Shown piece after piece: positions 1,044-19,096 of a stretch of 19,096 nucleotides of DNA (position 1 is the stretch's first letter; each line of letters starts with the position of its first letter). This DNA is from Candidatus Woesearchaeota archaeon (lineage in GTDB: Archaea; Nanobdellota; Nanobdellia; Pacearchaeales; GW2011-AR1). The stretch lies in contig CAYPBD010000003.1 of NCBI GenBank assembly GCA_964408905.1, positions 1 through 19,096 on the forward strand, read 5' to 3'. Below the pieces are notes generated by a model that had not been told where the DNA came from, searched no databases, and worked only from the letters and a program-made list of their open reading frames with translations. The translations under genes and the position numbers were made by a program.

Positions 1044-1073
1044 AATAATCTAGAAATAAAATACTATAAATAT

Positions 1074-3231: not shown

Positions 3232-3235
3232 AATT

Positions 3236-4213: not shown

Positions 4214-4234
4214 AAAAAATCAAAATTACTCTCG

Positions 4235-4242
4235 TTTATAAA
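4235..4242 (-). promoter_or_regulatory. TATA-box candidate (TTTATAAA) for radA, 21-nt spacer to the ATG (leaderless geometry)
   Basis: Exact TTTATAAA octamer 21 nt upstream of the ATG at 4213. The same geometry recurs at several other genes in the window. The AT-rich background weakens the significance. Confidence 0.45.
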
Positions 4243-4279
4243 GATTATTTAAATACAAGAGATAGTTTAGAAAATAGAA

Positions 4280-4987: not shown

Positions 4988-5008
4988 ACAAAAAAGAGAA
5001 AGTCATAT

Positions 5009-5016
5009 TTTATAAA
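5009..5016 (-). promoter_or_regulatory. TATA-box candidate (TTTATAAA) for the wHTH-Nudix gene, 21-nt spacer
   Basis: Exact TTTATAAA 21 nt upstream of the ATG at 4987. Confidence 0.45.
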
Positions 5017-5022
5017 CAAGTA

Positions 5023-5040
5023 TGTCAAATTAATTTGACA
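5023..5040. promoter_or_regulatory. Perfect 18-bp palindrome TGTCAAATTAATTTGACA: candidate operator (or rpa 3' hairpin)
   Basis: The sequence is self-complementary over all 18 bp. It lies 2 nt after the stop of the RPA-like gene and 6 nt upstream of the TATA candidate of the wHTH-Nudix gene. Confidence 0.5.
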
Positions 5041-5041
5041 A

Positions 5042-5968: not shown

Positions 5969-5989
5969 AAATTAAAAAATTCCCGAACA

Positions 5990-5997
5990 TTTTTAAG
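5990..5997 (-). promoter_or_regulatory. Weak TATA-like candidate (CTTAAAAA on the minus strand) for the RPA-like gene, 21-nt spacer
   Basis: A/T octamer 21 nt upstream of the ATG at 5968. An alternative TTATATAA at 6001-6008 would imply a UTR of about 10 nt. Confidence 0.3.
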
Positions 5998-6013
5998 TAT
6001 TTATATAACAAAA

Positions 6014-6021
6014 CTTATAAA
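6014..6021 (+). promoter_or_regulatory. TATA-box candidate (CTTATAAA) for ef1b, 21-nt spacer
   Basis: Octamer 21 nt upstream of the ATG at 6043. Confidence 0.4.
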
Positions 6022-6042
6022 CCAATTAAAATAAAATAAAAT

Positions 6043-6312
6043 ATGGGAACTGCAGGAATTAAAATAAAAATCATGCCTTTATCTCCAGAAGTAAATTTAG
6101 AAGAAATAAAAAAAGAATCTCAGAAATTAATTGAAGAAAAGGGCGGAAAAAATTGCAGGTTTGAAGAAGAACCAATTGCATTTGGTTTAAAAGCAATAAT
6201 AACTTTTTTTGAATGGCCTGAAGAAAATGAAGTTGAAGAATTAGAAAGTGAATTAAAAAAAATAAAAGATGTTAATTCTGTTCAAATTATAGATATGAGA
6301 AGACTCATTTAA
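6043..6312 (+). CDS. ef1b: Translation elongation factor aEF-1 beta
   Basis: 89 aa. KIKIMPLSPEVNLEEI..EEEPIAFGLKAI..VNSVQIIDMRRL matches the archaeal EF-1beta pattern and size. Confidence 0.88.
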   Translation: MGTAGIKIKIMPLSPEVNLEEIKKESQKLIEEKGGKNCRFEEEPIAFGLKAIITFFEWPEENEVEELESELKKIKDVNSVQIIDMRRLI

Positions 6313-6313
6313 A

Positions 6314-6940
6314 ATGTTATCCAAAGAACAAGCCAATCAAGTAAAAAAACAATTAATTCATCAAATCGAATCAAATTTTCCAGAAGACAAAAAGGAAATA
6401 GCAATTCAGCAAGTTGAATCTATGAGTAATGAACAACTTGAGGAATTCTTAAAACAAAATAAGTTAATAAAAAATCAACAAGGTGAACCACAACAATGCA
6501 TCTTCTGTTCAATTATTAATGGAAAAATTCCCTCATATAAAATTGACGAAAATGAAAAAGGAATTGCAATTCTCGAGATAAAACCAATCTCTTATGGACA
6601 TACAATCATAATTCCAAAAGAACATATAAAATCTGAAAAAGAACTTCCAAAAGAAGCAATAGAATTAGCACAAAAAGTTGCAAAAAAAATTAAAGAAAAA
6701 TTAAATCCAAAAGAAGTTTCTATTTCTCCCATTAATATTTTAGGACATGAAGCAATAAATGTTCTCCCAATATATGAAAATGAAAACATGAATTCTCCAC
6801 GAAAACAGATTCAGCCAGAAGAACTTGAAGAATTACAAAATAAATTACTAAAAAAGAAAAAAGAAATTAAAGAAGAACCTAAGAAAGAAATAGAAAATAT
6901 TAACGAAAAAAATACATGGTTACCAAAAAGAATTCCATAA
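6314..6940 (+). CDS. HIT-superfamily protein with an N-terminal helical extension and a degenerate histidine triad
   Basis: CIFCSIINGKIPSYKIDENEKGIAILEIKPISYGHTIIIPKEH is a typical HIT-fold N-terminal half. HEAINVLP replaces the canonical HxHxHxx motif. The start is 1 nt after the ef1b stop. Confidence 0.75.
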   Translation: MLSKEQANQVKKQLIHQIESNFPEDKKEIAIQQVESMSNEQLEEFLKQNKLIKNQQGEPQQCIFCSIINGKIPSYKIDENEKGIAILEIKPISYGHTIIIPKEHIKSEKELPKEAIELAQKVAKKIKEKLNPKEVSISPINILGHEAINVLPIYENENMNSPRKQIQPEELEELQNKLLKKKKEIKEEPKKEIENINEKNTWLPKRIP

Positions 6941-7774
6941 ATCTATCCATTTATAAAATAATATTAAAACTAAAAAACTAATTAAAAAAACAGGAGTAAA
7001 AGGGATTCCTTGTTTTATCTTAACAGTTTTGTAATTTTTTTTAATTTGTCTAATATCTTTTTTACTTAAACCATCCCAATTTGATTTAATTAGTTTTTTT
7101 CCAACCCTTAAATCCCTATAAATCCAATCTCCTTCTGTTAATTGATTTGCTTTAATTTTTTTTACCATACAAGATTCATCAACAGCTTTTGCATAAATAT
7201 ACAAATAAGGTAAAATAAAAAATATAATTCCAAAATATAATAAAAAAACTTCTGAAAATATAAAACAAAAGACAAAAAAAGCAATTCCAGCCAATACAAA
7301 AGGATAAATAATTTTCTTTTTATTTTTAAGTTGTTTATTAAATTCCTTTTTAAATTCTTTAAAATTTTTCATACTTAAAAAAATACTAATTATTAAACTA
7401 TAAAGAGCACCGAAAGAGAAGAAAATAAGAAAGAATAATCCAAAAATATTTACATTATTAAAAAAATTCTCAGAAAAAGGTAAAATAGTTCCTAAAGCAA
7501 TCATTAATTTAGCATCCCCTCCTGCAAACATTCGTCCATAATAAAGTAGATTCCCAATAACAAAAAAAATTCCAAGACCAATCAATCCTTGATAAAAAAA
7601 AGCAAAACCATTTGCATTTTGAGAAAATAAACAATAAAAAAATCTAAAGCCTAAAGCAAAAATTATTAAAGAAAAATTAAGCCAGTTCGCAACTTCTCTT
7701 TTTTTTAAATCCTGAACAACAGCAAAAATAATCCAAACTATTGCCAACACTGATAAAAAAATAATCTCATACAT
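6920..7774 (-). CDS. A24-family aspartic prepilin/preflagellin peptidase (PibD/FlaK/EppA-like)
   Basis: Polytopic membrane protein with the first catalytic Asp in VVQDLKKREVANW near the N-terminus and the second in the GxGD-type motif FAGGDAKLMIALG. The C-terminal GIPFTPVFLISF is typical of the family. Confidence 0.85.
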   Translation of the reverse strand: MYEIIFLSVLAIVWIIFAVVQDLKKREVANWLNFSLIIFALGFRFFYCLFSQNANGFAFFYQGLIGLGIFFVIGNLLYYGRMFAGGDAKLMIALGTILPFSENFFNNVNIFGLFFLIFFSFGALYSLIISIFLSMKNFKEFKKEFNKQLKNKKKIIYPFVLAGIAFFVFCFIFSEVFLLYFGIIFFILPYLYIYAKAVDESCMVKKIKANQLTEGDWIYRDLRVGKKLIKSNWDGLSKKDIRQIKKNYKTVKIKQGIPFTPVFLISFLVLILFYKWIDLWNSFW

Positions 7775-7930
7775 TAAATCAAATATAATTTTATATTAAT
7801 AAAGTTTTAGAATTACTCTGCCAGGTTCTTTTTTTTCCGCCTTTTTTATAAGGATGTTTTTTCTTTTCCTTCTTCTTATCTTTTTTCTTTTTTCTTTTTT
7901 GAGAACAGGCATATTCTGACATTTTAAAAA

Positions 7931-8353
7931 TTAAGACATAATTTTAGGAACACAGCATCTTTGTCCTCCAACAACATTTGACATAGAAGTTATATCATCT
8001 TCATTAGAAGAACATTCATTCTTTACAACTCCTTTACCCATAATACTTGTACATTCAAAACCACATTCAATTAAAGAACATTCTTCTACTCCATATTTTT
8101 CATATGCAGAAATAACTGCAAAGGTAGCACAATTTGTTTCAATTTCTGTCTGCCCATCTTTTATGGTTCTAACTTTTGTACAATAATCATATTTGCTGTT
8201 TGTTTCACATGCAGTAGCACATTGATTTACAAGAGTATTAACATTATTTGAAGCAAAAATATTCCAACCTATCACCAACCCCAATATTAAAATTACTAAC
8301 ACAATAACTACTGAAATTAATACCACACTCATTCCTTTCCTCTTTTTATTCAT
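7931..8353 (-). CDS. Prepilin-like (class III signal) Cys-rich secreted protein; start revised to ATG 8353
   Basis: The track start at 8359 is a GTG. The ATG at 8353-8351 gives MNKKRKG|MSVVLISVVIVLVILILGLVIG, matching the locus-wide leader consensus, with a TATA-like octamer 20 nt upstream. The mature part has about 12 Cys. Confidence 0.75.
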   Translation of the reverse strand: MNKKRKGMSVVLISVVIVLVILILGLVIGWNIFASNNVNTLVNQCATACETNSKYDYCTKVRTIKDGQTEIETNCATFAVISAYEKYGVEECSLIECGFECTSIMGKGVVKNECSSNEDDITSMSNVVGGQRCCVPKIMS

Positions 8354-8373
8354 ATTCACACAAAGTTATTTTA

Positions 8374-8381
8374 TTTTAAAA
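8374..8381 (-). promoter_or_regulatory. TATA-like candidate (TTTTAAAA), 20-nt spacer to ATG 8353
   Basis: Lies in the 34-nt intergenic gap. The spacing fits the pattern seen elsewhere in the window. Confidence 0.35.
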
Positions 8382-8387
8382 ATGTTC

Positions 8388-9080
8388 TCATTGATTCTCC
8401 TTTTTTCCAAAAGCTTTTGAAAACATCTCTGCAATCTTTCTAAGAAAATGCCTGTCTATTTTTTCCTGCTGCTTTTCTTCCTCTTCTTTCTTTTTCTTAT
8501 GAATCTCTCCCATATAAGATGATAAATAATAAATTCCAATCATCCCCACAACAATTATAAATAAAATAACAAATCTCCACACATTAGATTCTTTCCAAAA
8601 AATAAGCCATGCAAAAAATTCAATGATTGCTCTTAAAATCTTAAATTGTGCAAGAATAATTGTTAAAACAAATCCTATAACCATAGAAGTAGTAGAAGAA
8701 AAACTAGAATAATCAGTAAGAATTTCACTCATTTTTAAAAAAAGATAAAACCATAAAAGAATTATAGATAATAAAACTAAAGATAATGAATAATGTTCTC
8801 CAAATAAAACAACAAAAACAATATCTATTTTTTTAAGAAAAGAATCCATAGCAGAAACAAATCTGTTCTCTAATAAAATTTTCTTCCATTCTTCACCAAG
8901 ATAATCCCATCTTTTTTGTTCTATATCTTCTTTTATATCTTCTGCTTTTCCAATACCTTCTTCTAATTGTTCTCCGATTCCTTCTAAACCTTCTTCAAGA
9001 CCTTGAGCTTTTATAAAATATATTTGTAAAAAAAACAAAAACACAAATAAAAAAATAAACAAAAAACCTGCTTTTTTCAT
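8388..9080 (-). CDS. Polytopic membrane protein with a Sec-like signal, paralog of 9122-9772
   Basis: Signal-like MKKAGFLFIFLFVFLFFLQIYFIKAQG, an acidic segment, about 4 TM helices and a KKKKEEEEK-rich tail. It shares ILTDYSSFSSTTSMVIGFVLTIILAQFKIL with ILSNFGMFSETTAWVIGVSLSIVVANLKVI in the neighbouring gene. Confidence 0.7.
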   Translation of the reverse strand: MKKAGFLFIFLFVFLFFLQIYFIKAQGLEEGLEGIGEQLEEGIGKAEDIKEDIEQKRWDYLGEEWKKILLENRFVSAMDSFLKKIDIVFVVLFGEHYSLSLVLLSIILLWFYLFLKMSEILTDYSSFSSTTSMVIGFVLTIILAQFKILRAIIEFFAWLIFWKESNVWRFVILFIIVVGMIGIYYLSSYMGEIHKKKKEEEEKQQEKIDRHFLRKIAEMFSKAFGKKENQ

Positions 9081-9101
9081 ACAAAAAATATATCAAAGAA
9101 G

Positions 9102-9109
9102 TTTTTAAA
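9102..9109 (-). promoter_or_regulatory. TATA-like candidate (TTTAAAAA on the minus strand), 21-nt spacer to ATG 9080
   Basis: A/T octamer in the 41-nt intergenic gap. Confidence 0.35.
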
Positions 9110-9121
9110 GATTTTGAGAAA

Positions 9122-9772
9122 CTATGGATTCTTACCACCAAAAGCATTTGATGCTTTTCTAAAGGCCTTAATAGCAGATTCAACAGCTCCAGCACCTTTT
9201 TTTACAGCTTGCGCTTTTTTCTTAATCTTTTTTTTAGTTGACCATTCTCCTAATGTTTGAGCCAAAAAGATATTTAACACTAAAAAGATAATAAAAGGAA
9301 CAATAATTCCCACCATAACAGAAAAAGCACCTACTCCAGCAATAATTCCAAAAGACCAAACTGCAACATACATTATTACTTTTAGGTTTGCTACAACAAT
9401 TGATAAAGAAACTCCTATAACCCAAGCAGTTGTCTCAGAAAACATTCCAAAATTAGAAAGTATATCTCCAAAGGTAAAACAAAACATCACAAATAAAGCA
9501 AGTATTACAATTGATGCACTAATAGATCCCACTTCATTAATTAAAAATTGAGGAACTCCTCCAGCAATATAATTAAAAAAATTTAGTGCATCCCAATTTC
9601 CTTCCCATTTCTCATTTGCTATATCTCCAAAACGTTCATATTCTATATCTTTTATTGAAGAAGTTTTTTCTTGTTTGAAATTTTGTATAATAATTATTCC
9701 AACAATAATTAAAACAATTATAAGAAATATTTTAGCTATTCCTAATATTGCCCCTTTTTTATTTTTTATCAT
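9122..9772 (-). CDS. Prepilin-leader-bearing polytopic membrane protein; start revised to ATG 9772
   Basis: The track start at 9778 is a TTG. The ATG at 9772-9770 gives MIKNKKG|AILGIAKIFLIIVLIIVGIIII. Three to four further TM helices and a basic tail (KKKIKKKAQAVKKGAG..FGGKNP) follow. It is a paralog of 8388-9080. Confidence 0.72.
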   Translation of the reverse strand: MIKNKKGAILGIAKIFLIIVLIIVGIIIIQNFKQEKTSSIKDIEYERFGDIANEKWEGNWDALNFFNYIAGGVPQFLINEVGSISASIVILALFVMFCFTFGDILSNFGMFSETTAWVIGVSLSIVVANLKVIMYVAVWSFGIIAGVGAFSVMVGIIVPFIIFLVLNIFLAQTLGEWSTKKKIKKKAQAVKKGAGAVESAIKAFRKASNAFGGKNP

Positions 9773-9794
9773 TTTCAAATCAAAAACTTTTATA

Positions 9795-9802
9795 TTTATA
9801 AA
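9795..9802 (-). promoter_or_regulatory. TATA-box candidate (TTTATAAA), 22-nt spacer to ATG 9772
   Basis: Exact TTTATAAA in the 56-nt intergenic gap. Confidence 0.45.
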
Positions 9803-9828
9803 TATTTCTTTAATTTACAAACTATTTT

Positions 9829-10290
9829 TTACTCTGCAATAAGCAAAGGATTTTCTTTTGAAAGCCCCCATTCATCTTCACCCTGTCCATCAACATAACA
9901 AGGTCTTCCATTAACTAATACTTCATCTTTAAGAGTTTGACATTGTTCCTTTGCCAACCTATCTACTTTAATTGAATCACATTCTTCACCTAATTTTTCA
10001 AACTCAGCATAATTTTCTAAATATTCACAATTTGCATATTGTTTTGTTCCTGAAATTTCAACTTTCTGAAATAAATCACAATAACTAGTCTTTAAATTTA
10101 CTTCCGGAGAAGCATAACTTCCACATGCCTGTGCAGCAATCTCTACACTAGAAAACTTTTCAAAAATTTCTCCGATTGTTCCAAAAGCACCAGAGAAAAA
10201 AAGAATTATAATAACAGCAGCAACTACCATTACAATTAAAGGAATAAACCATTTATCGAGTTGTCCTTTTTTATCCATCCTCTTTTTCAT
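9829..10290 (-). CDS. Prepilin-like Cys-containing secreted protein, paralog of 7931-8353; start revised to ATG 10290
   Basis: The track ORF starts at a TTG (10371) inside the upstream gene. The internal ATG at 10290-10288 gives MKKRMDKKG|QLDKWFIPLIVMVVAAVIIILFF, and TTTATAAA sits 21 nt upstream. Its Cys spacing (YC-x16-NC-x15-EEC) parallels the 7931 protein. Confidence 0.75.
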   Translation of the reverse strand: MKKRMDKKGQLDKWFIPLIVMVVAAVIIILFFSGAFGTIGEIFEKFSSVEIAAQACGSYASPEVNLKTSYCDLFQKVEISGTKQYANCEYLENYAEFEKLGEECDSIKVDRLAKEQCQTLKDEVLVNGRPCYVDGQGEDEWGLSKENPLLIAE

Positions 10291-10311
10291 ATTTAAATTA
10301 TGATTAGATAA

Positions 10312-10319
10312 TTTATAAA
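10312..10319 (-). promoter_or_regulatory. TATA-box candidate (TTTATAAA), 21-nt spacer to ATG 10290
   Basis: Exact octamer in the gap between the stop at 10325 and ATG 10290. Confidence 0.45.
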
Positions 10320-10324
10320 TGTTT

Positions 10325-11140
10325 TTACATAGGAACAAAACTAAATTGAAGATTATCAAATTTCCCATCAATTAAAAATCTTTTTTTGCTTACCAAAGTA
10401 ACAAGAAAATATTTTTCACCATTAGTTTTTTCTTTTTCTATAACACTAACATTAAAATTAATTAAATCTCCATAACAATCTTCCATATCTTTAACATTTT
10501 TACATTTCTCTTTAACATCATAAATTTCATAAAAACTATTTAACCCAATTTTTTTCAAATTAAATTTCAAGGAAATTTCTGGAATATAAGTCAAATTAAT
10601 ATTTTCTACAAAACTATTCATTTCTAAATTATCAATTGTTATTATCAAAATATCTTTATTCACAACAACCTCAAAATTTTCATTCAAAATAATTTGTTTT
10701 AAATTATTTAGATAATCTTCTTCAAAATTATAATTTCCAAATTCATTTTCAAAATTCTCAATAAACCTATTTCTAAAATTTTCATCAAGTCTGTTATTAA
10801 TATTTTTAAATTCAATTTCTTTACCAGAAGTTATTGGATTATTAATATAATCACTATTCTCAACAAATTCATTATAAGTTTCTACAATTGCTTTTTCTTC
10901 TGCCTGATTAAGATAAAATTCAATTAAATCTTGTTTGGAATAAAAATTATTTATAAATTGGGCATTTGAAATTTTTGCTTTAACTTTGCCAGAACTAATA
11001 ACAAGACTAAAAAGAGTTACAGAAGCAACAAGCAAAACTAAAACAACAAGTAAAAGTACTGATAGATCTCCTTTTCTATTTTTGGGGAAAAAATTAAATT
11101 GTAAATATTTTGGCTTTTTTTTATTTTGTACAAATTTCAT
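10325..11140 (-). CDS. Prepilin-like protein, 271 aa, long basic leader
   Basis: ..FFPKNRKG|DLSVLLLVVLVLLVASVTLFSLVI followed by an N/E/F-rich soluble domain. Its ATG overlaps the stop of the upstream amidase gene by 1 nt (TAATG). Confidence 0.65.
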   Translation of the reverse strand: MKFVQNKKKPKYLQFNFFPKNRKGDLSVLLLVVLVLLVASVTLFSLVISSGKVKAKISNAQFINNFYSKQDLIEFYLNQAEEKAIVETYNEFVENSDYINNPITSGKEIEFKNINNRLDENFRNRFIENFENEFGNYNFEEDYLNNLKQIILNENFEVVVNKDILIITIDNLEMNSFVENINLTYIPEISLKFNLKKIGLNSFYEIYDVKEKCKNVKDMEDCYGDLINFNVSVIEKEKTNGEKYFLVTLVSKKRFLIDGKFDNLQFSFVPM

Positions 11141-12363
11141 TATTTTTCAACCCTCAATTTTAATCTTCTCATAAACTCTTCCCAAGGAAAAGCAGCACCA
11201 GGGTCATGTTTATTATTTGTGATTTCATCATGACCAATAATGTGATTCCTATCAACAGGAATATTATTTCTTTCAACAATTCCTGCAACTAATTTAACTA
11301 AAGAATCTATTTGTTCTTTTGTATAATTCTGCCAATGTTTAACTATTGTATCAGCAGGATGTATAAGACCTACTCCATCTGGACAATAAGGCTTAATTTT
11401 CTCTGCCCCACATGCAGAACCCCAATTTATAATCTCAATTCCAATTCCCCTTTGATTAAAACCTTTAATACAACAAAGTCCTTTATTACATCCTTGTATT
11501 AATTTTCCTGAATCTGTAATACACTCAGAATCACATTCAGGCAATGCATTTTCACCAACTCCACATCCAGCATGTTGTGCAGAATTCTTTTCCCATTCTC
11601 CTGTAACATCAGAAACATCCTCTCTCAAAATACATTCCTCAAGTCGCCATGCATCAAGCACGCACTCAGCAACTTTTCCATCTCTCTGTAAAATATATTG
11701 AACACTTAAATCTTTTCCTTTCAAAGCAGACTCCACCCCTTTATAAGAACCTCCTCCTGCAGTATAATGAATAACAACAGTGTCTTTTTCCAATCCCTGA
11801 AGTGTTATTTCTTCTTTTTTTTCTGTCACTTCTTCTTCACTAATATACAACCCAACAGGAACTTCTTTCCCATCTAAAAAAAGAATTGTCTTAGGAAGAT
11901 TATACAAAACATTATCATAATCATAAACAGATACATCTTTATTTATCAAAATATAATCTCCAAATAAATCAGAAGAATCATAATCCACAGTAAACAAATA
12001 TGAGTTTATTTCTTCTTTATCTAAAATATTCTCAACCTGTTCTTTTATTTTTTCTTTAGCATCTTTATCATCTAACACTTTCCATTCTAAAATCAAATCT
12101 TTTATTGTCTCTCCCTCATCTGTAGGAGTATTAAGAACTCTGACAAGATTTCTCTGACTTTGTAAATCTTCTAAATTACTTTCTTCATCAAGAGTAATAA
12201 CATTTTTTTGAAAAGAAACAACTTTGCTTCCACTTAATATTATTGCTATAACAACCATTCCAGATATAACAAAAAATATCATAATAAATGATGAAACCCA
12301 TGTCAAAGTCTTGCCTAATGTTGCTTTTTTAGATTTCAAAAAAATTAATTTATTTATTTTCAT
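11140..12363 (-). CDS. N-terminally anchored (prepilin-like?) N-acetylmuramoyl-L-alanine amidase (Amidase_2/AmpD/PGRP-type) with a Cys-rich insert; start revised to ATG 12363
   Basis: The track start at 12375 is a TTG. The ATG at 12363 lies one nucleotide downstream of the upstream gene's stop codon. The N-terminus is MKINKLIFLKSKKATLGKTLTWVSSFIMIFFVISGMVVIAIIL. The C-terminal domain has TVVIHYTAGG..LSVQYILQRDGKV..AQHAG..NQRGIGIEIINWG..YTKEQIDSLVKLV..IIGHDEITNNKHDPGAAFPWEEF, the Amidase_2 motif series including the AmpD-like GH..K.DPG..FPW. Confidence 0.8.
   Translation of the reverse strand: MKINKLIFLKSKKATLGKTLTWVSSFIMIFFVISGMVVIAIILSGSKVVSFQKNVITLDEESNLEDLQSQRNLVRVLNTPTDEGETIKDLILEWKVLDDKDAKEKIKEQVENILDKEEINSYLFTVDYDSSDLFGDYILINKDVSVYDYDNVLYNLPKTILFLDGKEVPVGLYISEEEVTEKKEEITLQGLEKDTVVIHYTAGGGSYKGVESALKGKDLSVQYILQRDGKVAECVLDAWRLEECILREDVSDVTGEWEKNSAQHAGCGVGENALPECDSECITDSGKLIQGCNKGLCCIKGFNQRGIGIEIINWGSACGAEKIKPYCPDGVGLIHPADTIVKHWQNYTKEQIDSLVKLVAGIVERNNIPVDRNHIIGHDEITNNKHDPGAAFPWEEFMRRLKLRVEK
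11167..11784 (-). other. Amidase_2 catalytic domain region of the 11140-12363 CDS, with the Cys-rich insert at about 11413-11574
   Basis: Zn-ligand candidates are His in VIHYT, His in IIGHDE and Asp in KHDPG. The insert HAGCGVGENALPECDSECITDSGKLIQGCNKGLCCIKGFNQRG carries 7 Cys between the conserved HAG and GIGIE blocks. Confidence 0.7.
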
Positions 12364-12364
12364 T

Positions 12365-12889
12365 TTACCTAACAACAGAAACTTTCCTGCCTGCCTGATT
12401 CGATGCAGCTAAAATTTCAAGTGTAACCTCTTCAATTTTATTGTCTTTGTAATATAAAGCAACTTCTCTTTCTCTAACACATTTTGGATAATATTTCGCA
12501 GTCACTCCTTCTTCTCCCTCCTGAATCTCACAATCTTTCTCAAATGAAAAATCACCTCCTTCAACTTCCTTCATCAAATAATCTGTTTCATTAAAAATCT
12601 GAATATTAAAATAAAAATCACTTCCTTCTCCAAAAATTTCTTTATTTAATTGACATTTTTCAAAAACATCAAAATCTTTTTCAGTCAATTCATCAATTAA
12701 AAAACCTTGCTTTATAACACAACTAACAATTTTTTCATAAATAATATTTGCCTCTACTTCTCTTATGTCAATACCAACAGAATGATAAGCCAAAACAGAT
12801 AAAACCACTCCTGCCCCAATAACTGCAAGTGCAAAAATCCACCAAATAGAAAGTAATTTTTCTCCTCCCTTTTTATTTAAAAATATCAT
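12365..12889 (-). CDS. Prepilin-like protein, 174 aa
   Basis: MIFLNKKG|GEKLLSIWWIFALAVIGAGVVLSVLA with 4 Cys in the soluble part. There is an ATGA start/stop overlap with the upstream gene. Confidence 0.7.
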   Translation of the reverse strand: MIFLNKKGGEKLLSIWWIFALAVIGAGVVLSVLAYHSVGIDIREVEANIIYEKIVSCVIKQGFLIDELTEKDFDVFEKCQLNKEIFGEGSDFYFNIQIFNETDYLMKEVEGGDFSFEKDCEIQEGEEGVTAKYYPKCVREREVALYYKDNKIEEVTLEILAASNQAGRKVSVVR

Positions 12890-13293
12890 GCTTCTATATT
12901 AGGTTTATTTATTATAATAATATAATTCCCATCAAGAGATTCATCAGGATATGCATTTACATCAACATCACTAATAAAAGAATAAGAATATCCTCCTCTT
13001 TCCCCCAATTTTACTGTCACAACATTATCCTTAATTTTCACAATATCTTCAAAACTTATTTTATTTTCTTCAGCAAGTTCCATTCCTTCTTTCATATTTA
13101 ATTTAATTTCCATTACAGGTTCAGCAGAATCAATCAATAATGCAATTTGTTTTGCATATGCCTGTTCATAAACGATTACACCTCCAGAAGACCTAAAAAC
13201 AAATATCAACAAAGCAGAAATAAAAATTATATTTACAATAATAAAAATAACAGTAGGGTAAATTACATCTGTTGCTGCCCCTTTTTTGTTCAT
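12886..13293 (-). CDS. Prepilin-like protein, 135 aa
   Basis: MNKKG|AATDVIYPTVIFIIVNIIFISALLIFVF followed by a small beta-rich domain. A TATA-like octamer lies 22 nt upstream. Confidence 0.72.
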   Translation of the reverse strand: MNKKGAATDVIYPTVIFIIVNIIFISALLIFVFRSSGGVIVYEQAYAKQIALLIDSAEPVMEIKLNMKEGMELAEENKISFEDIVKIKDNVVTVKLGERGGYSYSFISDVDVNAYPDESLDGNYIIIINKPNIEA

Positions 13294-13315
13294 ATTTAAT
13301 TAAAACATAAAGAAT

Positions 13316-13323
13316 ATTATAAA
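13316..13323 (-). promoter_or_regulatory. TATA-box candidate (TTTATAAT on the minus strand), 22-nt spacer to ATG 13293
   Basis: Lies in the 41-nt intergenic gap. Confidence 0.4.
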
Positions 13324-13334
13324 CCTAACTAAAA

Positions 13335-14432
13335 CTAAGGAATACTTTCAATCACAGAACAATAACTTTGAATATCCTTTAAGTTATAATTAACTGCCCT
13401 AACAACACTACATCCATTACGTGCTTCTTCTCCAACAGAAATATCTCCACAATAACCTGCAGTCACTCCCCTATTATAAGCTACATTTAATTGTTGAATC
13501 CCTACTCCTACAATCGCTACAGCAAGGGTTATTAATCCCCCCTTAACGCCAATTGTTTTTAATCCTTTTACAGTTAATGAAGCTCCTGCAAAATGAGCGC
13601 CTACTGCTCCAATTCCAAGGACACCTTTTCCAATATTCAAAAGAGAATCCCCATGACCAGGAGCAGAAATCTGCATAAACAAAACAGCCATCTCATCTTT
13701 TGGTTCTTTCAAAGGATCTTCCCATTCATCCAAATTAGAAGAATCAATTGTAGTAGAATCTTCTTCACCAACTACAGGTATTTCGCCCTCTTTAGATTTT
13801 TCTTCTTCAATATCTTTCACTTCAATAGAATCAATATCAGATGCACTGAATTGACCTCCTTCTCCTGATAAATAAGCATAATAAGAAATATTCCCATTTG
13901 GAATTTTATGTGTTCTCATATATTCTAAAACATTTATATCATCTAAATCCAAATCCAACTTTTCATCAAATGCTATTCTTGAACATATTACACAAGTAGG
14001 GTATACTCCTCCAATTCCAAAAGTATCTGCCCAGTATTGAGAAAACAAAGATACTTTTCCTTCACCCATTGTTGTCCAACAATCCACAATTTCCTGGGAA
14101 ATTAATTTTTCAACATCTTTCACTTCACCAACTTTAGCTTTTGTAATTCCTTTTACATTCTTAAAATCTTCTTCACATTTCCCTCCAATAATTCCAGAAG
14201 TTACACAAATTTTAGAGGTCTTACACTTTAAAGGAACCAAACCCTGTGTTTCTGAAGGAACTGTTGCTCTTAAAACCACAGATTGATGACAGACCTCTCT
14301 GTCAATACGTCCTGTCCAGCTAATTTGAGAAAAAACAAGAAGAACAATTGCAAAACCAGCAATTAATAAAATTAATGTAACCAATTGTTGAGCAGTAATT
14401 GCTCCTTTTTTATTTATATTATTTTTTATCAT
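13335..14432 (-). CDS. Prepilin-like protein, 365 aa, with a Cys-rich domain, acidic linker and Gly-rich hydrophobic C-terminal module
   Basis: MIKNNINKKG|AITAQQLVTLILLIAGFAIVLLVF with 10 Cys overall. The acidic linker is DIEEEKSKEGEIPVVGEEDSTTIDSSNLDEWEDPLKEPKDE. The segment SLLNIGKGVLGIGAVGAHFAGASLTVKGLKTIGVKGGLITLAVAIVGVGIQQL follows. Confidence 0.75.
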   Translation of the reverse strand: MIKNNINKKGAITAQQLVTLILLIAGFAIVLLVFSQISWTGRIDREVCHQSVVLRATVPSETQGLVPLKCKTSKICVTSGIIGGKCEEDFKNVKGITKAKVGEVKDVEKLISQEIVDCWTTMGEGKVSLFSQYWADTFGIGGVYPTCVICSRIAFDEKLDLDLDDINVLEYMRTHKIPNGNISYYAYLSGEGGQFSASDIDSIEVKDIEEEKSKEGEIPVVGEEDSTTIDSSNLDEWEDPLKEPKDEMAVLFMQISAPGHGDSLLNIGKGVLGIGAVGAHFAGASLTVKGLKTIGVKGGLITLAVAIVGVGIQQLNVAYNRGVTAGYCGDISVGEEARNGCSVVRAVNYNLKDIQSYCSVIESIP

Positions 14433-14528
14433 TTAAATTCCTGTTAAAACTTTAATTACAAAATAAACTGCTGCACAAACTATAACAAAAAAGACAATCC
14501 ACAATAAAGTTTGCACAATTTTTTTCAT
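14433..14528 (-). CDS. Possible 31-aa single-TM micro-protein (not in the ORF track)
   Basis: The ATG at 14528-14526 gives MKKIVQTLLWIVFFVIVCAAVYFVIKVLTGI, with the stop at 14435-14433 directly abutting the ATG of the next gene. It fills an otherwise unexplained 120-nt gap in a tightly packed operon. No homology support. Confidence 0.3.
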   Translation of the reverse strand: MKKIVQTLLWIVFFVIVCAAVYFVIKVLTGI

Positions 14529-14552
14529 TGTTGTATTCTCTCTCCCATCATT

Positions 14553-15521
14553 TTATTCACAAATATAAAATCTTATATATCCTCCTATAGCTCTTTCTTT
14601 ATTAATTTGATTAAAACATATTTGTTTTTCTTCAAGAACAGAACAAGATTTTGTATCTCCTTCTGAAATGAAAATTGGATTATTAAACCAGATTGAATCA
14701 AATGTAGATAAAATTATTTTTCCTCCTTTTATTTCTTCTTTATTAATTAAATCTCTCAAATAATTTTGGAATTCTCCTTCAAGAACTTTTTTCAAATCTT
14801 TATTAACTTTTATTTCAGAACAATCACCAAGCAATTTCATAAAAAGCGAACTAACTTTTGTTTTCTCTCCTTCAAACTCAACTTCTTTATCTAAAAAATC
14901 AGTCAAAATATCAGAATCAATTTCTATATCAGAGATAGAAATATTATTTCCTTCTTTTTTAAAAGATAATTTTTTTGGAATTTCATAAAAAGAAATCCAG
15001 TTAACAAATGAAATTGTTGTTCCTTTAGGTAAAGGATTTTCCCTTCCTCCAAAATAAGCATCTCTTATTTTAATTCTATCATCAACATTCTTACAAATTC
15101 CTTCTTTTTCACATTTATCAAGTCCGCCAGTAGGATAGCCTGCTAATTCTTCTTTTGTATAAAAATAATCTCCATAAGGTGCACCATCCACTGTTGTAAT
15201 CTGCGCTATTAAATCTATTCCAGGACAAAGACACAAACAATTCTCTCCTTTGCATTGTGTAGGCATATTTTCTTCTCCATTATAAGAAACCAAATACCAT
15301 TCTTTAGGTGATGTAATAAGAAAATCTCCTTTTTCTCCATCTTCTAAACTATTAATTTCAGCAATAATCTGATTAAGATTTTCTTTTGCCTGTTCAACTT
15401 TTGTCTTTTGAATTGCAATCCCATACAAACTAAAACCCAAATAAAAAAGAAGACCTATACAAATAACTGCAATAATCATCTTCAATGCTTCAGATGCTAA
15501 AATTCCCCTTTTATTTTTCAT
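14553..15521 (-). CDS. Prepilin-like protein, 322 aa, Cys-rich
   Basis: MKNKRG|ILASEALKMIIAVICIGLLFYLGF, with Glu at +5 as in bacterial type IV pilins. Clustered Cys include TQCKGENCLCLCPG and KCEKEGICKN. The start overlaps the upstream gene by 11 nt. Confidence 0.75.
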   Translation of the reverse strand: MKNKRGILASEALKMIIAVICIGLLFYLGFSLYGIAIQKTKVEQAKENLNQIIAEINSLEDGEKGDFLITSPKEWYLVSYNGEENMPTQCKGENCLCLCPGIDLIAQITTVDGAPYGDYFYTKEELAGYPTGGLDKCEKEGICKNVDDRIKIRDAYFGGRENPLPKGTTISFVNWISFYEIPKKLSFKKEGNNISISDIEIDSDILTDFLDKEVEFEGEKTKVSSLFMKLLGDCSEIKVNKDLKKVLEGEFQNYLRDLINKEEIKGGKIILSTFDSIWFNNPIFISEGDTKSCSVLEEKQICFNQINKERAIGGYIRFYICE

Positions 15522-16515
15522 TTAACAACTCCTTAATTTCTTCATAATCTACTCTTAAATTTGACTCATAATAAGGTTCATAACCTCTCCTAAATTTCTC
15601 AGACACATCATTAATTATTGCAGTTGTAGTAGGTTCTTCAAAAGTGCTCATTCTTTCTGCAGTCAATTGTTCATCATCCAACCAAACAGAACCATCAGGA
15701 TAAATTCTTCCTAACCATTGAATATCAATAGCCAAAACACCTTCAACAGCGCCTTTAATCTCTAAATATTCTTTTCCATCAAGAACATATAAAAATTTAA
15801 CTTTGCTTTTGACCAGCAAAATAATATAAGGAGCAAAATCAATTTTCAAACCTTTATCAATTCCAAAAAAACCTCTTTTTACTTTTTCCAATCTTAACAA
15901 TTCTGTTTTTAGAATAATTGGATTTTCAGGAAAACCATAATCAATTTTTATCTCTTCTTCTTCATTTTTACATAAAAGATTATTTCCTGCATAAAAAGAA
16001 TTATTAAGTTTAATAAAATCAGAAATATCTCCCCCCAAATCAAATCTAATCTTTTGATAATCCTCAGAATCTAAATCAAATTCAGAATCAGAATTAAAAA
16101 AACCAGAATTTAAAGATATAACTCCTCCCTTAACTTCAGCTACTTTAATGTCTTTTTCTAAAAGCTTAACAAATCCTTCCTTTCTATCACCACTCCAATA
16201 CAAATTTGTTTTTTCATTATCCATAAAAATATATTGTTTACTTCCTACTCCAGAAACCCCTCCTTCTGGAATATTAATTTTTCCTATCATCACAGGACAT
16301 AAGTCTTTAATCTCTTCGTCACTTAATTTACTTACATCAATTTCAGTATCATTTTCAGGAACAGAATATCCTGGAAGATTTCTTAAATAACTATTAATAT
16401 CCACCTTAAATAAAAACATTGCAACAACAGCAATTACAAAAACAGCTATTATAATTGTAATTAATGTTTTATTTGCTATCCCTTTTTTATCAAAAACAAT
16501 TTTTTGTTTAATCAT
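15511..16515 (-). CDS. Prepilin-like protein, 334 aa
   Basis: MIKQKIVFDKKG|IANKTLITIIIAVFVIAVVAMFLF followed by a large soluble domain. There is an ATGA overlap with the mini-pilin gene upstream. Confidence 0.72.
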   Translation of the reverse strand: MIKQKIVFDKKGIANKTLITIIIAVFVIAVVAMFLFKVDINSYLRNLPGYSVPENDTEIDVSKLSDEEIKDLCPVMIGKINIPEGGVSGVGSKQYIFMDNEKTNLYWSGDRKEGFVKLLEKDIKVAEVKGGVISLNSGFFNSDSEFDLDSEDYQKIRFDLGGDISDFIKLNNSFYAGNNLLCKNEEEEIKIDYGFPENPIILKTELLRLEKVKRGFFGIDKGLKIDFAPYIILLVKSKVKFLYVLDGKEYLEIKGAVEGVLAIDIQWLGRIYPDGSVWLDDEQLTAERMSTFEEPTTTAIINDVSEKFRRGYEPYYESNLRVDYEEIKELLNEK

Positions 16516-16682
16516 CCTCTAAACCTAAATAGATTTTTTACAAATTCAATAGCACCACTCATTTTTCCTGAAAGAATCATATATCCTACAAACATTATTG
16601 CAACAATAATTAGGGCAAGCATCCATCCTTTAAACTCTTCTATTGCTACTCCTTTTTTATTTTTTAACAAACCTCTTTTCAT
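16512..16682 (-). CDS. Flp-like mini-pilin, 56 aa (not in the ORF track); candidate major filament subunit
   Basis: The ATG at 16682-16680 gives MKRGLLKNKKG|VAIEEFKGWMLALIIVAIMFVGYMILSGKMSGAIEFVKNLFRFRG, ending with TGA at 16514-16512 (ATGA overlap with the next gene). Its size and the G|xxIEEF motif resemble the Flp G|xxxxEY motif. It has its own TATA-like octamer 21 nt upstream. The 67-aa plus-strand track ORF 16504-16707 is its shadow. Confidence 0.65.
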   Translation of the reverse strand: MKRGLLKNKKGVAIEEFKGWMLALIIVAIMFVGYMILSGKMSGAIEFVKNLFRFRG

Positions 16683-16703
16683 AAAACAAAAAAAGAAAAA
16701 GAA

Positions 16704-16711
16704 TTAATAAA
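16704..16711 (-). promoter_or_regulatory. TATA-like candidate (TTTATTAA on the minus strand), 21-nt spacer to ATG 16682
   Basis: Lies in the 35-nt gap between the platform gene stop (16718) and the mini-pilin ATG. Confidence 0.4.
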
Positions 16712-16717
16712 TGTTTT

Positions 16718-18892
16718 CTAACTTGTTAATCCCCCCAATACTAGAGAAGTTAATAAAAACAAAGCCAAAGTTGCTATAAGAGCTGTGATAAAATAAAGAG
16801 TAATTCCTGCCATCAAATTTTTTCCTATTTTATTTGTTTTCTCAAGTTTATCTTCACCAGAATCAATAGTTACCAAAGAACCTGTTAAAATAAAAATTAT
16901 TTCAATTATATAAATTCCAATAGCAATTTGCAAATAATAAGGAGGAATCATATTTATTACTGGAAATATTCCTGTTATGGCTGTCACATCACCTAAACCA
17001 GTAATCTCTCCTACTCCTTCAAGTTGTGATAAAATATCTAATTTACTTAAAATAGAAGTTATCATTACAGCTAAACCAACAACAACACCAGAAAGTAAAG
17101 GTGCCAAAAAAGTCATATTACTTTTCATATCAGAGGCAATCTCTGCTAGCATATCTTTTAATCTATTAGTAATCTTCTGAATATTTTTTACATATTCTGA
17201 AATACTCATAAGACCCATAGCAGCAATTCTCAATCCTTTTTTTGCAGATTCAATAAGAATTCTCATGCTTGTTGCAATTAATTCAGAAGGATAATATATA
17301 ATTGCTCCTCGTCGGGGATCAAAGATAGCTTTCTCAACACTCATTCCCATTTGTCTTATATTATAATTCACTCTTCTGAAAAAATCTTCTGTTTCCAAAC
17401 CCCTAGATGATTCAGCAACTTTTCCAAAAATAAGTTCAGGAGGCATACCATTCCCAATTCTATTTCCTAACTGAAATAAAGAATTATTAAATTCTTTTTC
17501 AAGTTGTTTTGTCTTAATTCTTTCCTTAATCAAATCTTTAGTTCTTTCTTTAAATGAAAATGAAAAAAATAAAGCAATACTAAGAGGAATAAACATACTT
17601 AAAATCAAAGCAAATATTCCAAAGGGGCCAACAAAACCTCCTCCTGATTCTTTAAAATCAAAAATATATCCTTCACCTAAAAAACTTAAACCAATTTGCG
17701 AAAAAGTATAATCTTTTTGCAAACCTAATAATTCTGGAACAGGAGTATATTGAAAAATTAAAGGTAATAATCCAATTAGAAAAAAAGGTAAACAAATCAA
17801 AAAAGCATGTAGATAAGGTTTCCTACTTTGATATTTATGATAAAAAGGATTTTTTTCTAATAAACTTTTTTCACCATATCCTCCAGGCCTTAATAATAAA
17901 ATTTTATCTGTAAGATAAAAGACAAAAAAAGGAACAATCAAATTAAACAAAAGAAAAAGATGATACCATTTTAATAATCCTCCAAGCATTGCAGAAGCTA
18001 AAGGGATTAATGCCAATCCCAAAGTTGGCAAAACAACTCCAAGCATATAAACATTGGTCAAAGGACTTCTTACATTGTGTGTAAATTTTAACATCTTATC
18101 ATAAACACCATCAAGAACAACTTGTAAGGATTTCTCTAAAGTCGCAATTCTCCTGTCATTGCTTGGTTCAAATAAACTACTCTCAATCAAATGAAAAGAC
18201 TCGATAAATTCTGTAGAATAATCTCTCCATGTCTCAAGATAATTATCAAGACTCTCTTTTATTGTAGAAAATTTTCCAACAGAAACATCATAAAATACTT
18301 TTTTTAAATCAAGTGCAAGAGGAGGTTGCAAATGATCTGAAGCAAAAGCAACTGCCTTTTCCAAATTAGGAGTGTGTCGCATATAAACAACAATATATAA
18401 AATCGCAGGCACCATTTGTGAAGATGCCTTAAGTCTCCATTTATTTGCTAATCTTGCAGGATATCCATTAACAAAATAAAATAAGAATAAAGACAATATA
18501 ATTATTAAAAAGAAAAATAAGACAGGAAAATTAGAAAGTCCTCCTCTAATTAAAGTTATTGCAACAGAAATTAATAACCCAAGGAAAAAAACACTTACAA
18601 AAGTCATAATACTCAAAGTAATAGGTTGCCAAGGTTCTAAATCAAGATGAGAAATTTCTAGTTGCTTTTTAATTTTAGCTTCATCTTTTTTAGAAATCTT
18701 CAGTTTTATTATATTACCTAAACTACGGCACCATCTCTCATATCCTGTCAATTCAGGAGCCATCTCTTGTTTAAATTTAACATACTCTCGGCTATAATTA
18801 ACATCTTTAACACCTTTTGTCTTGATTTGCTTTTCAATTCTTGCACTATGTTTTCTAAGAATATCTTTTATATTTGGTTTTCTATTCACCAT
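16718..18892 (-). CDS. Type IV filament platform membrane protein (FlaJ/TadC/PilC-like, two T2SS-F-like repeats)
   Basis: 724 aa and polytopic. Two cytoplasmic helical modules each precede TM bundles: LEKAVAFASDHLQPPLALDLKKVFYDVSVGKFSTIKESLDNYLETW and ELIFGKVAESSRGLETEDFFRRVNYNIRQMGMSVEKAIFDPRRGAIIYYPSELIATSMRILIESAKKG. This fits a fused archaeal GspF-family architecture, and the gene sits at the head of the pilin cluster. Confidence 0.65.
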   Translation of the reverse strand: MVNRKPNIKDILRKHSARIEKQIKTKGVKDVNYSREYVKFKQEMAPELTGYERWCRSLGNIIKLKISKKDEAKIKKQLEISHLDLEPWQPITLSIMTFVSVFFLGLLISVAITLIRGGLSNFPVLFFFLIIILSLFLFYFVNGYPARLANKWRLKASSQMVPAILYIVVYMRHTPNLEKAVAFASDHLQPPLALDLKKVFYDVSVGKFSTIKESLDNYLETWRDYSTEFIESFHLIESSLFEPSNDRRIATLEKSLQVVLDGVYDKMLKFTHNVRSPLTNVYMLGVVLPTLGLALIPLASAMLGGLLKWYHLFLLFNLIVPFFVFYLTDKILLLRPGGYGEKSLLEKNPFYHKYQSRKPYLHAFLICLPFFLIGLLPLIFQYTPVPELLGLQKDYTFSQIGLSFLGEGYIFDFKESGGGFVGPFGIFALILSMFIPLSIALFFSFSFKERTKDLIKERIKTKQLEKEFNNSLFQLGNRIGNGMPPELIFGKVAESSRGLETEDFFRRVNYNIRQMGMSVEKAIFDPRRGAIIYYPSELIATSMRILIESAKKGLRIAAMGLMSISEYVKNIQKITNRLKDMLAEIASDMKSNMTFLAPLLSGVVVGLAVMITSILSKLDILSQLEGVGEITGLGDVTAITGIFPVINMIPPYYLQIAIGIYIIEIIFILTGSLVTIDSGEDKLEKTNKIGKNLMAGITLYFITALIATLALFLLTSLVLGGLTS

Positions 18893-18949
18893 CTTTTATA
18901 CTTCTATTAAATAAGAATGAAAATTAAATTAATAAATCTTTAGAAAAAA

Positions 18950-19096
18950 TTATCTATTATGTCTAGCATAAACAAAAATAAATACTAGTCCTAAGACAAA
19001 AAATAAAATTCCTAAAATAGAAAAATCATATTGAGTGCTTCCAACAACTGCTCCTGTAAAATTTACAGAAAGAAAAAATAAAGCAGATAAAAATGA
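18950..19096 (-). CDS. C-terminal fragment of a small membrane protein (N-terminus off the window)
   Basis: The minus-strand frame is open from 19096 and reads ..SFLSALFFLSVNFTGAVVGSTQYDFSILGILFFVLGLVFIFVYARHNR, with the stop at 18952-18950. It has two hydrophobic segments and unknown function. Confidence 0.4.
   Translation of the reverse strand, partial: SFLSALFFLSVNFTGAVVGSTQYDFSILGILFFVLGLVFIFVYARHNR

Follow-up and report, generated by a model that had tools for sequence, protein, structure and literature searches.

What is a peptidoglycan amidase doing among the filament genes of an archaeon? This question is raised by a 19,096-nucleotide stretch of DNA (hereafter the window; GenBank assembly GCA_964408905.1, contig CAYPBD010000003.1, positions 1 to 19,096) from Candidatus Woesearchaeota archaeon, in which a gene for a protein of 407 residues lies within a cluster of pilin-like genes. 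An initial annotation, made from the letters alone, had described the product as an AmpD-type amidase behind a pilin-like anchor and had proposed that it is a component or cargo of the filament. Our analysis indicated that the product is probably a modular minor-pilin-like protein of a DPANN archaeon, namely a murein amidase that is exported on a pilin-type anchor and directed against the walls of bacteria. As an effector module, the amidase is optional and exchangeable: few related loci have it, it occurs on two alternative adjacent subunits, and another domain replaces it in near relatives.

The gene, called gene 3 below, starts with ATG; an in-frame TTG at 12375 would give 4 amino acids more. 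Its junctions are as tight as the initial annotation had described them. The TAA of the preceding gene (12367-12365) is separated from the ATG (12363-12361) by a 1-nucleotide gap, and at the other end, the two genes have base 11140 in common within TAATG, an overlap of 1 nucleotide. A protein identical to the product (P0001) is present in NCBI, JGI and Logan. The JGI metagenome contig Ga0307436_1010223 (locus L084) showed 98.8% DNA identity to window positions 11382-14617. More than one sample therefore holds the same amidase-bearing population, with Ga0315545 and SRR9700688 as further instances.

The C-terminal part of the protein matched the Pfam family Amidase_2 (PF01510) over residues 194-389 with an E value of 3.4e-20 and a score of 73.1 bits, far above the cut-off of 26, and its relatives scored 64-104 bits. 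All five Amidase_2 motifs that had been listed for the C-terminal ~200 residues were found, at residues 196, 222, 262, 306 and 375. We modelled the 407-residue protein with AlphaFold2 (AF2) on 16 homologues, and the predicted local distance difference test (pLDDT) values were 82-98 across residues 190-407. A Foldseek search of solved structures with the model returned Escherichia coli AmiD (3d2y) and Pseudomonas aeruginosa AmpDh2 (4bj4/4bol) and AmpDh3 (4bxj) as the top hits, with E values of 7e-7 to 3e-5 and a probability of 1.0, followed by the LysGH15 amidase-2 and Drosophila PGRP-LB, a peptidoglycan recognition protein (PGRP). The family call of the initial annotation was thus borne out both by the PF01510 profile and by a confident model with the alpha/beta fold of T7 lysozyme, AmpD and PGRP. 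Among viral predicted structures, all significant fold matches but one or two were N-acetylmuramoyl-L-alanine amidase lysins, at 10-18% identity.

Residue conservation was scored across 12 family members, whose mutual identity is only 30-47%. H199, H378, D387, E310 and Y223 were invariant in all of them, and K385 was present in 11. H199 in VVIHYT aligned with IVLHYT of AmpDh2, and H378 and D387 in IIGHDEITNNKHDPG aligned with IIGHSDIAPGRKVDPG. Judged by motif alignment, H199, H378 and D387 are the predicted His-His-Asp Zn ligands, with the pattern His...His-x(8-10)-Asp/Cys, so that the expected ligands are all in place; by the same comparison, E310 (GIE motif), Y223 and K385 make up the putative catalytic residue set. 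Tyr63 and Lys162 of AmpD are functionally important (PMC5036320). The residue conservation and the modelled fold suggest that the domain of residues 190-407 is catalytically competent, and it would hydrolyse the amide bond of N-acetylmuramoyl-L-alanine.

The label "AmpD-type" had to be corrected. A profile of the family searched against the sequences of the Protein Data Bank (PDB) matched AmpDh2 (7e-22), AmiD (1e-15) and AmpDh3 (3e-13), but AmpD with only 7e-7. The domain is an Amidase_2 nearest to the extracytoplasmic AmiD/AmpDh2/3 subgroup, not to AmpD. An AmpD equivalog was rejected, as the NCBIfam model NF008758 gave 28.5 bits against a cut-off of 143 and matched only residues 345-403. The 10 paired Cys, together with the N-terminal leader and the hydrophobic helix, also contradict a cytoplasmic location of the AmpD type. 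The best sequence and fold matches, AmiD, AmpDh2 and AmpDh3, have the Zn and catalytic residues in common with the archaeal domain; they are extracytoplasmic and act on polymeric murein and the sacculus as well as on muropeptides (PMC5036320). However, they belong to murein-containing bacteria, where they occur as lipoproteins or as soluble proteins of the periplasm with an extra C-terminal murein-binding domain, whereas the 407-residue protein is anchored by a pilin-like segment, lacks a binding domain and contains ~70 inserted residues and 10 Cys. The C-terminal murein-binding domain of the bacterial enzymes is absent, and the protein stops ~10 residues past the catalytic domain. It falls outside the class of modular peptidoglycan hydrolases (PGHs) as defined by a catalytic plus a murein-binding domain (Strock et al. 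2025).

All 10 Cys of the protein are in the amidase domain, and none is in the N-terminal 189 residues. The insert that had been reported to contain 7 Cys holds 6 in the quoted string of 38 residues. The Cys-rich loop does interrupt the catalytic domain, as had been noted, but it is not the sole insertion: the Pfam match spreads 196 residues over ~125 model positions, and therefore ~70 residues are lineage-specific insertions, which were modelled by AF2 with pLDDT >80. C267, C277, C297 and C298 were invariant across the 12 sequences. The two members of each of the pairs C234/C244, C281/C292 and C318/C327 were either both present or both missing, as would be expected for disulfide partners and for a protein that is exported. 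In the reading preferred here, up to five disulfides would stabilise the amidase domain.

The N-terminal half of the protein is that of a putative filament subunit. Its N-terminus reads ...KSKKA↓TLGKTLTW (the arrow marks the putative cleavage site), followed by 22 hydrophobic residues, and shows the layout of a class III signal, that is, a short basic leader ending in G, A or S and a hydrophobic helix of at least 20 residues. In the AF2 model, residues 13-43 form a single helix (pLDDT ~80 over residues 21-40), and a region of ~145 residues follows before the amidase domain. On the sequence, we infer that a prepilin peptidase would cleave the leader after Ala14. To define the carrier family, an exhaustive HMMER search was run from the close paralogues P0005 and P0010, which show 62% identity to the N-terminal half of the 407-residue protein, and yielded 72 motif-bearing representatives of 50%-identity clusters. 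Their N-terminal consensus is (N/S)KK(A/G/S)↓Q(I/V)GxT(L/I)TW, their median length is 181 residues, and 71 of the 72 are shorter than 300. In locus L086, the closest relative without the amidase, the collinear gene at 4664-5164 encodes a protein of 166 residues without amidase, which is 48.6% identical to residues 2-176 and ends there; the 407-residue protein is therefore that subunit plus a C-terminal amidase. The leader, the hydrophobic helix and the ~145-residue region agree with the initial annotation, whereas its description of the last as a linker does not hold, since the region is the body of a putative filament subunit. The carrier stands alone in most of the related type-IV-filament loci and the amidase is separable from it, as in a modular pilin.

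Related loci were sought with the 12-sequence alignment of the amidase family. The window has a G+C content of 28% and is archaeal, with genes for RadA, EF-1beta, an RPA-like OB-fold protein and NDK; its syntenic relatives are metagenome-assembled genomes (MAGs) labelled Woesearchaeota, Pacearchaeota, Nanoarchaeota or plain "archaeon". The locus was collinear in at least 8 DPANN MAGs (Woesearchaeota, Pacearchaeota, Nanoarchaeota). In loci L003/L006, L007, L010, L011, L004, L005 and L008, the gene order is T2SSE ATPase, small membrane protein, 720-residue membrane protein, pilin-like genes and A24 peptidase, with HIT, EF-1beta, RPA, RadA and NDK downstream. In the window, 10 of 12 consecutive minus-strand genes (7931-16515) encode a short basic leader ending in [KR][GA] and a hydrophobic stretch. 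Furthermore, five small genes keep a fixed order across dozens of metagenomic loci: gene 1 (~130 residues), gene 2 (~170 residues, "KKGxKxxSxYWF"), gene 3 ("KKAQxGxTxTW" family), gene 4 ("KRGDIPITILVIG") and a fifth ("KRGQGLSTNAIILI"). The A24 peptidase shows 57-70% identity across syntenic loci. The T2SSE ATPase was seen only in the syntenic loci L003 and L009, outside this window; in both, the homologue of the window's 724-residue membrane protein is directly downstream of it. That membrane protein gave no Pfam, NCBIfam or PDB sequence match, and its platform role is therefore assigned from position. The amidase gene is embedded, as had been claimed, in an archaeal gene cluster of the type-IV-filament kind, with Peptidase_A24 and pilin-like neighbours.

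The distribution of the amidase family follows this locus. All members that could be placed in context were found in it (the window, L004, L005, L006, L007, L008, L010, L011 and L105), and a further context is provided by L009, a locus of Aenigmarchaeota that is more distant. When 5.8 billion clusters were searched with a family profile, ~35 of them gave E<1e-28, and every full-length member has a pilin-like N-terminus. Past these clusters, the scores dropped sharply to bacterial amidases with SH3 or PG_binding_1 domains (E values of 1e-22 or higher). Two graft positions were observed. In the window, L004, L005 and L105, the amidase is C-terminal to the gene 3 carrier. In L006, L007, L008, L010, L011 and most database members, it lies inside gene 2: compared with unfused gene 2 proteins, these fusions have in common the N-terminal ~140 residues and a C-terminal segment (FYxxD..NQYxIKIL..VGKxEKN), with ~220 residues of amidase between. 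In L003, gene 3 beside the gene 2 fusion is a plain protein of 162 residues. On a crude neighbour-joining (NJ) tree of the amidase domain, drawn without support values, the two architectures were interleaved and the window sequence stood among the gene-2-insert forms, which suggests repeated moves of the amidase between the neighbouring genes 2 and 3. P0167, a fragment of a gene-2-insert amidase fusion, carries the NCBI label "Patescibacteria group bacterium"; its contig is probably mis-binned, because the pilin part is of the DPANN gene 2 type.

The amidase slot can also hold other cargo. The P0005 and P0010 loci (the latter is L164) are collinear gene for gene, with products of 321, 334, 365, 143, 172, [373], 270, 151, 209 and 229 residues, and gene 3 of both (L164 3961-5088) ends in an unrelated domain of ~190 residues in the place of the amidase, which in P0005 spans residues 184-373. 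This domain has an invariant Cys and His (GxPQC ... GHxAFVG ... VQAG). It had no Pfam match, and phmmer and profile searches against PDB sequences gave chance matches only. At least 60 representative homologues were found, mostly at the C-terminus of proteins of up to 2,557 residues. An AF2 model on the two-sequence alignment was unusable (pLDDT 37). The Cys-His domain may be an uncharacterised effector or hydrolase domain; a papain/NlpC-like hydrolase can only be guessed at, given that the Cys and His are invariant and that a helix is predicted to precede the strands. In L009 (Aenigmarchaeota PFTQ01000044.1), the gene at 8225-10504 encodes a pilin-like protein of 759 residues (MRKG↓IGPFSILLIG...) with an SLT domain (E 3e-10) and an Amidase_2 domain (E 1e-29), downstream of the T2SSE ATPase and a 651-residue membrane protein. 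That one carrier combines two different activities specific to murein speaks for murein as the substrate. The idea of a filament component or cargo was strengthened by these results, with pilin-like N-termini in ~35 clusters, two carrier genes and a swapped domain in the same slot.

The coordinates of the features are collected in the following table.

Table. Features of the amidase gene and the surrounding filament locus in the window (aa, amino acids; ORF, open reading frame)
Feature	Position	Strand	Basis and details
Amidase gene, gene 3 of the minor-pilin-like cluster	11140..12363	-	ORF list and translation; stop codon 11140-11142
Basic leader, aa 1-14, MKINKLIFLKSKKA	12322..12363	-	Sequence; putative prepilin-peptidase site after Ala14
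Hydrophobic N-terminal helix, aa ~15-44, TLGKTLTWVSSFIMIFFVISGMVVIAIILS	12232..12321	-	AF2 single helix aa 13-43
Carrier module, aa ~45-189	11797..12231	-	Body of the stand-alone ~166-aa minor-pilin-like protein of relatives
Amidase_2 catalytic domain, aa 190-407	11143..11796	-	Pfam, AF2, Foldseek, profile against PDB; key residues H199, Y223, E310, H378, K385, D387
Cys-rich insert, aa 264-301	11461..11574	-	6 Cys: C267, C277, C281, C292, C297, C298; AF2 pLDDT 82-88
Gene 1, 135-aa pilin-like, most conserved small subunit	12886..13293	-	Alignment A3; metagenome scan
Gene 2, 174-aa pilin-like (KKG↓GEKLLSIWW...)	12365..12889	-	BLASTP matches to the N-terminal parts of the amidase-insertion proteins P0011 (E 7e-13) and P0007 (E 3e-13)
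Gene 4, 271-aa pilin-like (..NRKG↓DLSVLLLVV..)	10325..11140	-	Overlaps the amidase stop by 1 nucleotide; positional homologues in L004, L086, L003
142-aa pilin-like (KKRKG↓MSVVLISVV..), "KRGQGLSTNAIILI" family	7931..8359	-	Family present in every related locus
Prepilin (class III signal) peptidase	6920..7774	-	Pfam Peptidase_A24 PF01478, E 3.6e-11, score 43.9 bits (cut-off 26.5)
Three larger pilin-like proteins, 365, 322 and 334 aa	13335..16515	-	K(K/R)G and hydrophobic N-terminus; no Pfam match; order kept in L004 and L086
724-aa polytopic membrane protein, candidate platform protein	16718..18892	-	73-82% identity in syntenic loci

Other genes of the window and its relatives were noted in passing. 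Two polytopic membrane proteins of 230 and 218 residues (8388-9080 and 9122-9778, minus strand) lie inside the pilin-like cluster. They are confined to the subclade of the window, which comprises L086 and the contigs of P0005 and P0010; most related loci lack them. For the ORF at 9829-10371 (minus strand), a TTG start is listed that would give an overlap of 47 nucleotides with the upstream gene. The true start is likely an internal ATG (MKKRMDKKG↓QLDKW...), giving ~151 residues, as in L086 and the P0005 contig, and a pilin-like N-terminus. L009 encodes, at 4415-6949, an extremely Cys-rich pilin-like protein of 844 residues with an internal duplication ("CSYYRCK(D/E)GC...DFC(N/K)(K/Q)EWTDT" modules) and no Pfam match. 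At 1074-2648 (minus strand), the window encodes a Thr/Ser/Asn-rich surface protein of 524 residues with an N-terminal hydrophobic segment, a C-terminal membrane anchor and a basic tail. It has no Pfam match, is a conserved neighbour in L003 (17447-19150) and L010, and may be a surface-layer protein or adhesin. The gene at 4280-4987 (minus strand) fuses a winged-helix/DUF7347 DNA-binding domain to a NUDIX hydrolase domain and is absent at the syntenic position of L003. The RadA homologue of L007 (16423-20424) was matched by tblastn in three pieces ~1.5 kb apart (residues 1-123, 123-283 and 278-323), which suggests two inteins; RadA of the window (3236-4213) is uninterrupted, unlike the L007 homologue.

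The origin of the amidase domain was examined by homology and composition. No tblastn hit was obtained in 50,697 phage records at E<=1e-3. The G+C content at third codon positions (GC3) of the amidase domain is 0.161, compared with a mean of 0.144 (standard deviation 0.022) for the window genes, and its total G+C of 0.353 is matched by that of RadA (0.357). With GC3 within the range of the window and no phage match, there is therefore no sign of recent transfer. A phage endolysin was rejected, given the lack of phage matches and the chromosomal flanks (RadA, EF-1beta, NDK) in conserved synteny. The absence of phage matches, the host-like GC3 and the housekeeping flanks likewise agree with the earlier statement that the gene is no stray phage lysin. 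The deeper origin of the domain is presumably bacterial.

These data allow us to propose how the protein could work. The precursor would insert in the membrane, and the A24 peptidase encoded by the locus would remove the leader after Lys-Lys-Ala14. The ATPase and platform machinery would then bring the subunit to the surface of the cell, where it would most likely be part of the filament, either at the tip or in low abundance; such display as a minor or tip subunit is proposed by analogy with bacterial modular pilins (PMC8179133). The exposed amidase would cleave stem peptides off the murein glycan strands of a contacted bacterium, and the local weakening of the wall could lead to attachment or access, or to the release of peptides.

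Several observations weigh against an antibacterial amidase displayed in this way. To sample the locus independently of the amidase, we used gene 1 as the anchor in metagenome contigs and checked the loci for the amidase both by tblastn and by a hidden Markov model on six-frame translations, which agreed. The amidase was present in one of 41 sampled loci with at least 1.5 kb downstream and in none of the 27 reaching the peptidase; it is therefore an optional accessory that is dispensable for the filament. At the N-terminus of the 407-residue protein, position +1 is T, and a K stands close to the cleavage site where E, T or S is usual; the carrier was modelled with moderate confidence only (pLDDT 50-79). 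Neither the protein nor nine of its neighbours matched the pilin or archaellin models of Pfam or NCBIfam. The ATPase lies beyond the window, and the platform protein is assigned by position only. No recognised murein-binding domain was found by Pfam, which detected PF01510 alone. In addition, all cultivated DPANN archaea have archaeal, not bacterial, hosts (PMC11291902). As for the rarity of the amidase, the initial annotation had taken its absence from homologous loci as the mark of a random insertion. Such absence is largely what we found, with the gene in only one of the 41 loci, yet this does not turn the gene into a random insertion.

The alternative that survives best, although we consider it unlikely, is a surface-tethered scavenger of the bindosome type. 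The class-III-type N-terminus would then only export and anchor the protein, which would never be in a filament, and the amidase would turn murein fragments or dead-cell sacculi into peptides and amino acids for an auxotroph. The sugar-binding proteins of Sulfolobus indeed carry class III signal peptides although they are not subunits of a pilus (PMC3047682). That loci can do without the amidase is expected of a nutritional accessory, and the 407-residue protein has no adhesin or murein-binding domain. However, the carrier goes beyond a mere signal, being a conserved subunit of ~170 residues encoded among filament subunits. The alternative graft, furthermore, sits inside the body of another conserved subunit, an arrangement that is sensible if assembly of the carrier into a complex matters.

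The target could also be a wall polymer of an archaeal host, such as the pseudomurein of Methanobacteriales, or another glycan-peptide amide. The known DPANN hosts are archaea (PMC11291902), and the large lineage-specific insertions around the active-site strands could alter specificity. This target is nevertheless improbable, as the domain keeps every residue used by murein amidases, only murein amidases are found among its nearest relatives in sequence and fold, and the Aenigmarchaeota domain is paired with an SLT lytic transglycosylase, which is also murein-specific. We know of no report of Amidase_2 activity on pseudomurein.

Two further explanations appear very improbable. In the first, the amidase would open the producer's own wall for passage of the filament. 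In bacteria, a dedicated murein hydrolase is often encoded in operons for type IV pili and type IV secretion, which can be counted for such self-directed remodelling, as can the translational coupling of the gene within the filament operon. However, archaea of this group are not known as murein makers, 40 of the 41 related loci have the same gene set without the amidase, and the close relative L086 lacks it in an otherwise collinear locus. The sole difference between L086 and the window near gene 3 is the missing amidase domain. This comparison also revealed no amidase-linked extra gene that could be a candidate immunity protein, which is consistent with a non-self target. In the second explanation, which we regard as no more probable than the first, the domain would be a non-catalytic murein-recognition module, a PGRP-like adhesin with which the filament binds bacterial walls without cutting them. 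The Amidase_2 fold does include non-catalytic PGRPs, and Drosophila PGRP-LB was among the fold matches. Non-catalytic PGRPs have lost a Zn ligand, whereas H199, H378, D387 and E310 are invariant here; because the Zn and catalytic residues are kept across 12 divergent sequences, a non-catalytic role is unlikely, even though known modular pilins mostly bear binding modules (PMC8179133). Finally, a stray lysin, that is, a gene taken up recently from a phage or bacterium and inserted into the operon by accident, without a role there, is barely credible: a bacterial type of domain and its absence from most related loci would fit, but phage records and GC3 (0.161 against a mean of 0.144) offer no support, the ~35 clusters all have pilin-like N-termini in at least three carrier contexts, and the fusions are in frame with catalytic residues conserved at 30-47% identity.

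The pilin-anchored amidase preferred here most resembles the modular type IV pilins, in which a functional module is grafted onto a small N-terminal pilin module (PMC8179133). In bacteria, these include Streptococcus sanguinis PilB with a von Willebrand factor A (vWA) module, PilC with a lectin module, and GspK, in which a domain is inserted in the pilin sheet (PMC8179133). Gene 3 of the window is like PilB in that the module is C-terminal and follows a linker, and the gene 2 variants are like GspK in that the module lies within the pilin body. The bacterial carriers are minor subunits of low abundance whose genes accompany those of the machinery, and the archaeal carrier would be of the same kind. 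The bacterial systems differ in that their characterised modules serve binding, whereas the archaeal module is a predicted murein hydrolase that is exchangeable between two neighbouring subunits. The supplementary text of the InterPro survey of modular pilins, as far as it was available to us, contained no amidase or lysozyme terms (PMC8179133).

Murein-degrading enzymes of archaea have been described before. Modular PGHs are prominent in Nanoarchaeota (Strock et al. 2025, PMC12352652), and large SLT/murein transglycosylase proteins were noted in Woesearchaeota and Pacearchaeota (PMC8204110, PMC9723730). Like the amidase studied here, these are murein-specific enzymes of murein-free archaea and are read as tools against bacteria; unlike it, they are catalytic-plus-binding proteins with Sec/Tat signals, or very large SLT proteins. 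None of these three papers mentions an amidase on a pilin-like subunit or in a filament locus (PMC12352652, PMC8204110, PMC9723730). The Sulfolobus bindosome also uses functional archaeal proteins with class III signal peptides and a type-IV-pilus-like assembly system for surface display (PMC3047682). However, its proteins are solute-binding proteins that work with ATP-binding cassette (ABC) transporters, include no hydrolases and are not fused to a conserved minor-pilin body. Comparison with the type VI secretion system (T6SS) is also instructive. The Tae effectors of the T6SS are contact-delivered murein amidases, and AmpDh3 has been reported as a T6SS effector. In both systems, a murein amidase would act against the wall of another cell by means of a surface nanomachine, and the exchangeable modules recall polymorphic effectors. 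The T6SS is a contractile injection device rather than a type IV filament, and bacterial effectors need immunity proteins, whereas none is apparent here.

In the literature searched, no pilin-fused murein amidase was described for archaea or bacteria, although absence there is no proof of absence, and a 2026 survey of archaeal type IV filament systems does not mention amidase, peptidoglycan or hydrolase. Modular pilins and DPANN genes for murein degradation were already known; the novelty is that a putative murein hydrolase, itself exchangeable, serves as the module of a modular minor pilin. A wider reading, which we put forward only tentatively and hold to be possible rather than probable, is that the type IV filament of Woesearchaeales-type DPANN archaea is a contact-dependent weapon or feeding device whose minor-pilin tips carry exchangeable wall-degrading modules. 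The modules in question are Amidase_2, SLT plus Amidase_2, and the Cys-His domain that also ends large polymorphic-toxin-like proteins. If true, archaea would have their own counterpart of polymorphic effector delivery, and a subset of DPANN archaea would have bacterial hosts or prey.

DPANN archaea are in contact with other cells and may include parasites of bacteria, and their murein hydrolases have so far been hints without a link to a surface machine. A murein amidase fused to subunits of a conserved filament locus provides a concrete model of a filament- or surface-displayed, exchangeable wall-degrading module, underpinned by two independent graft positions and an alternative domain in the same slot. 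The disulfide-rich amidase of ~215 residues is a compact target for study, and its specificity for Lys-type or diaminopimelate (DAP)-type murein would point to the partner organisms. These findings extend the concept of the modular pilin to archaea and to enzymatic, presumably antibacterial modules.

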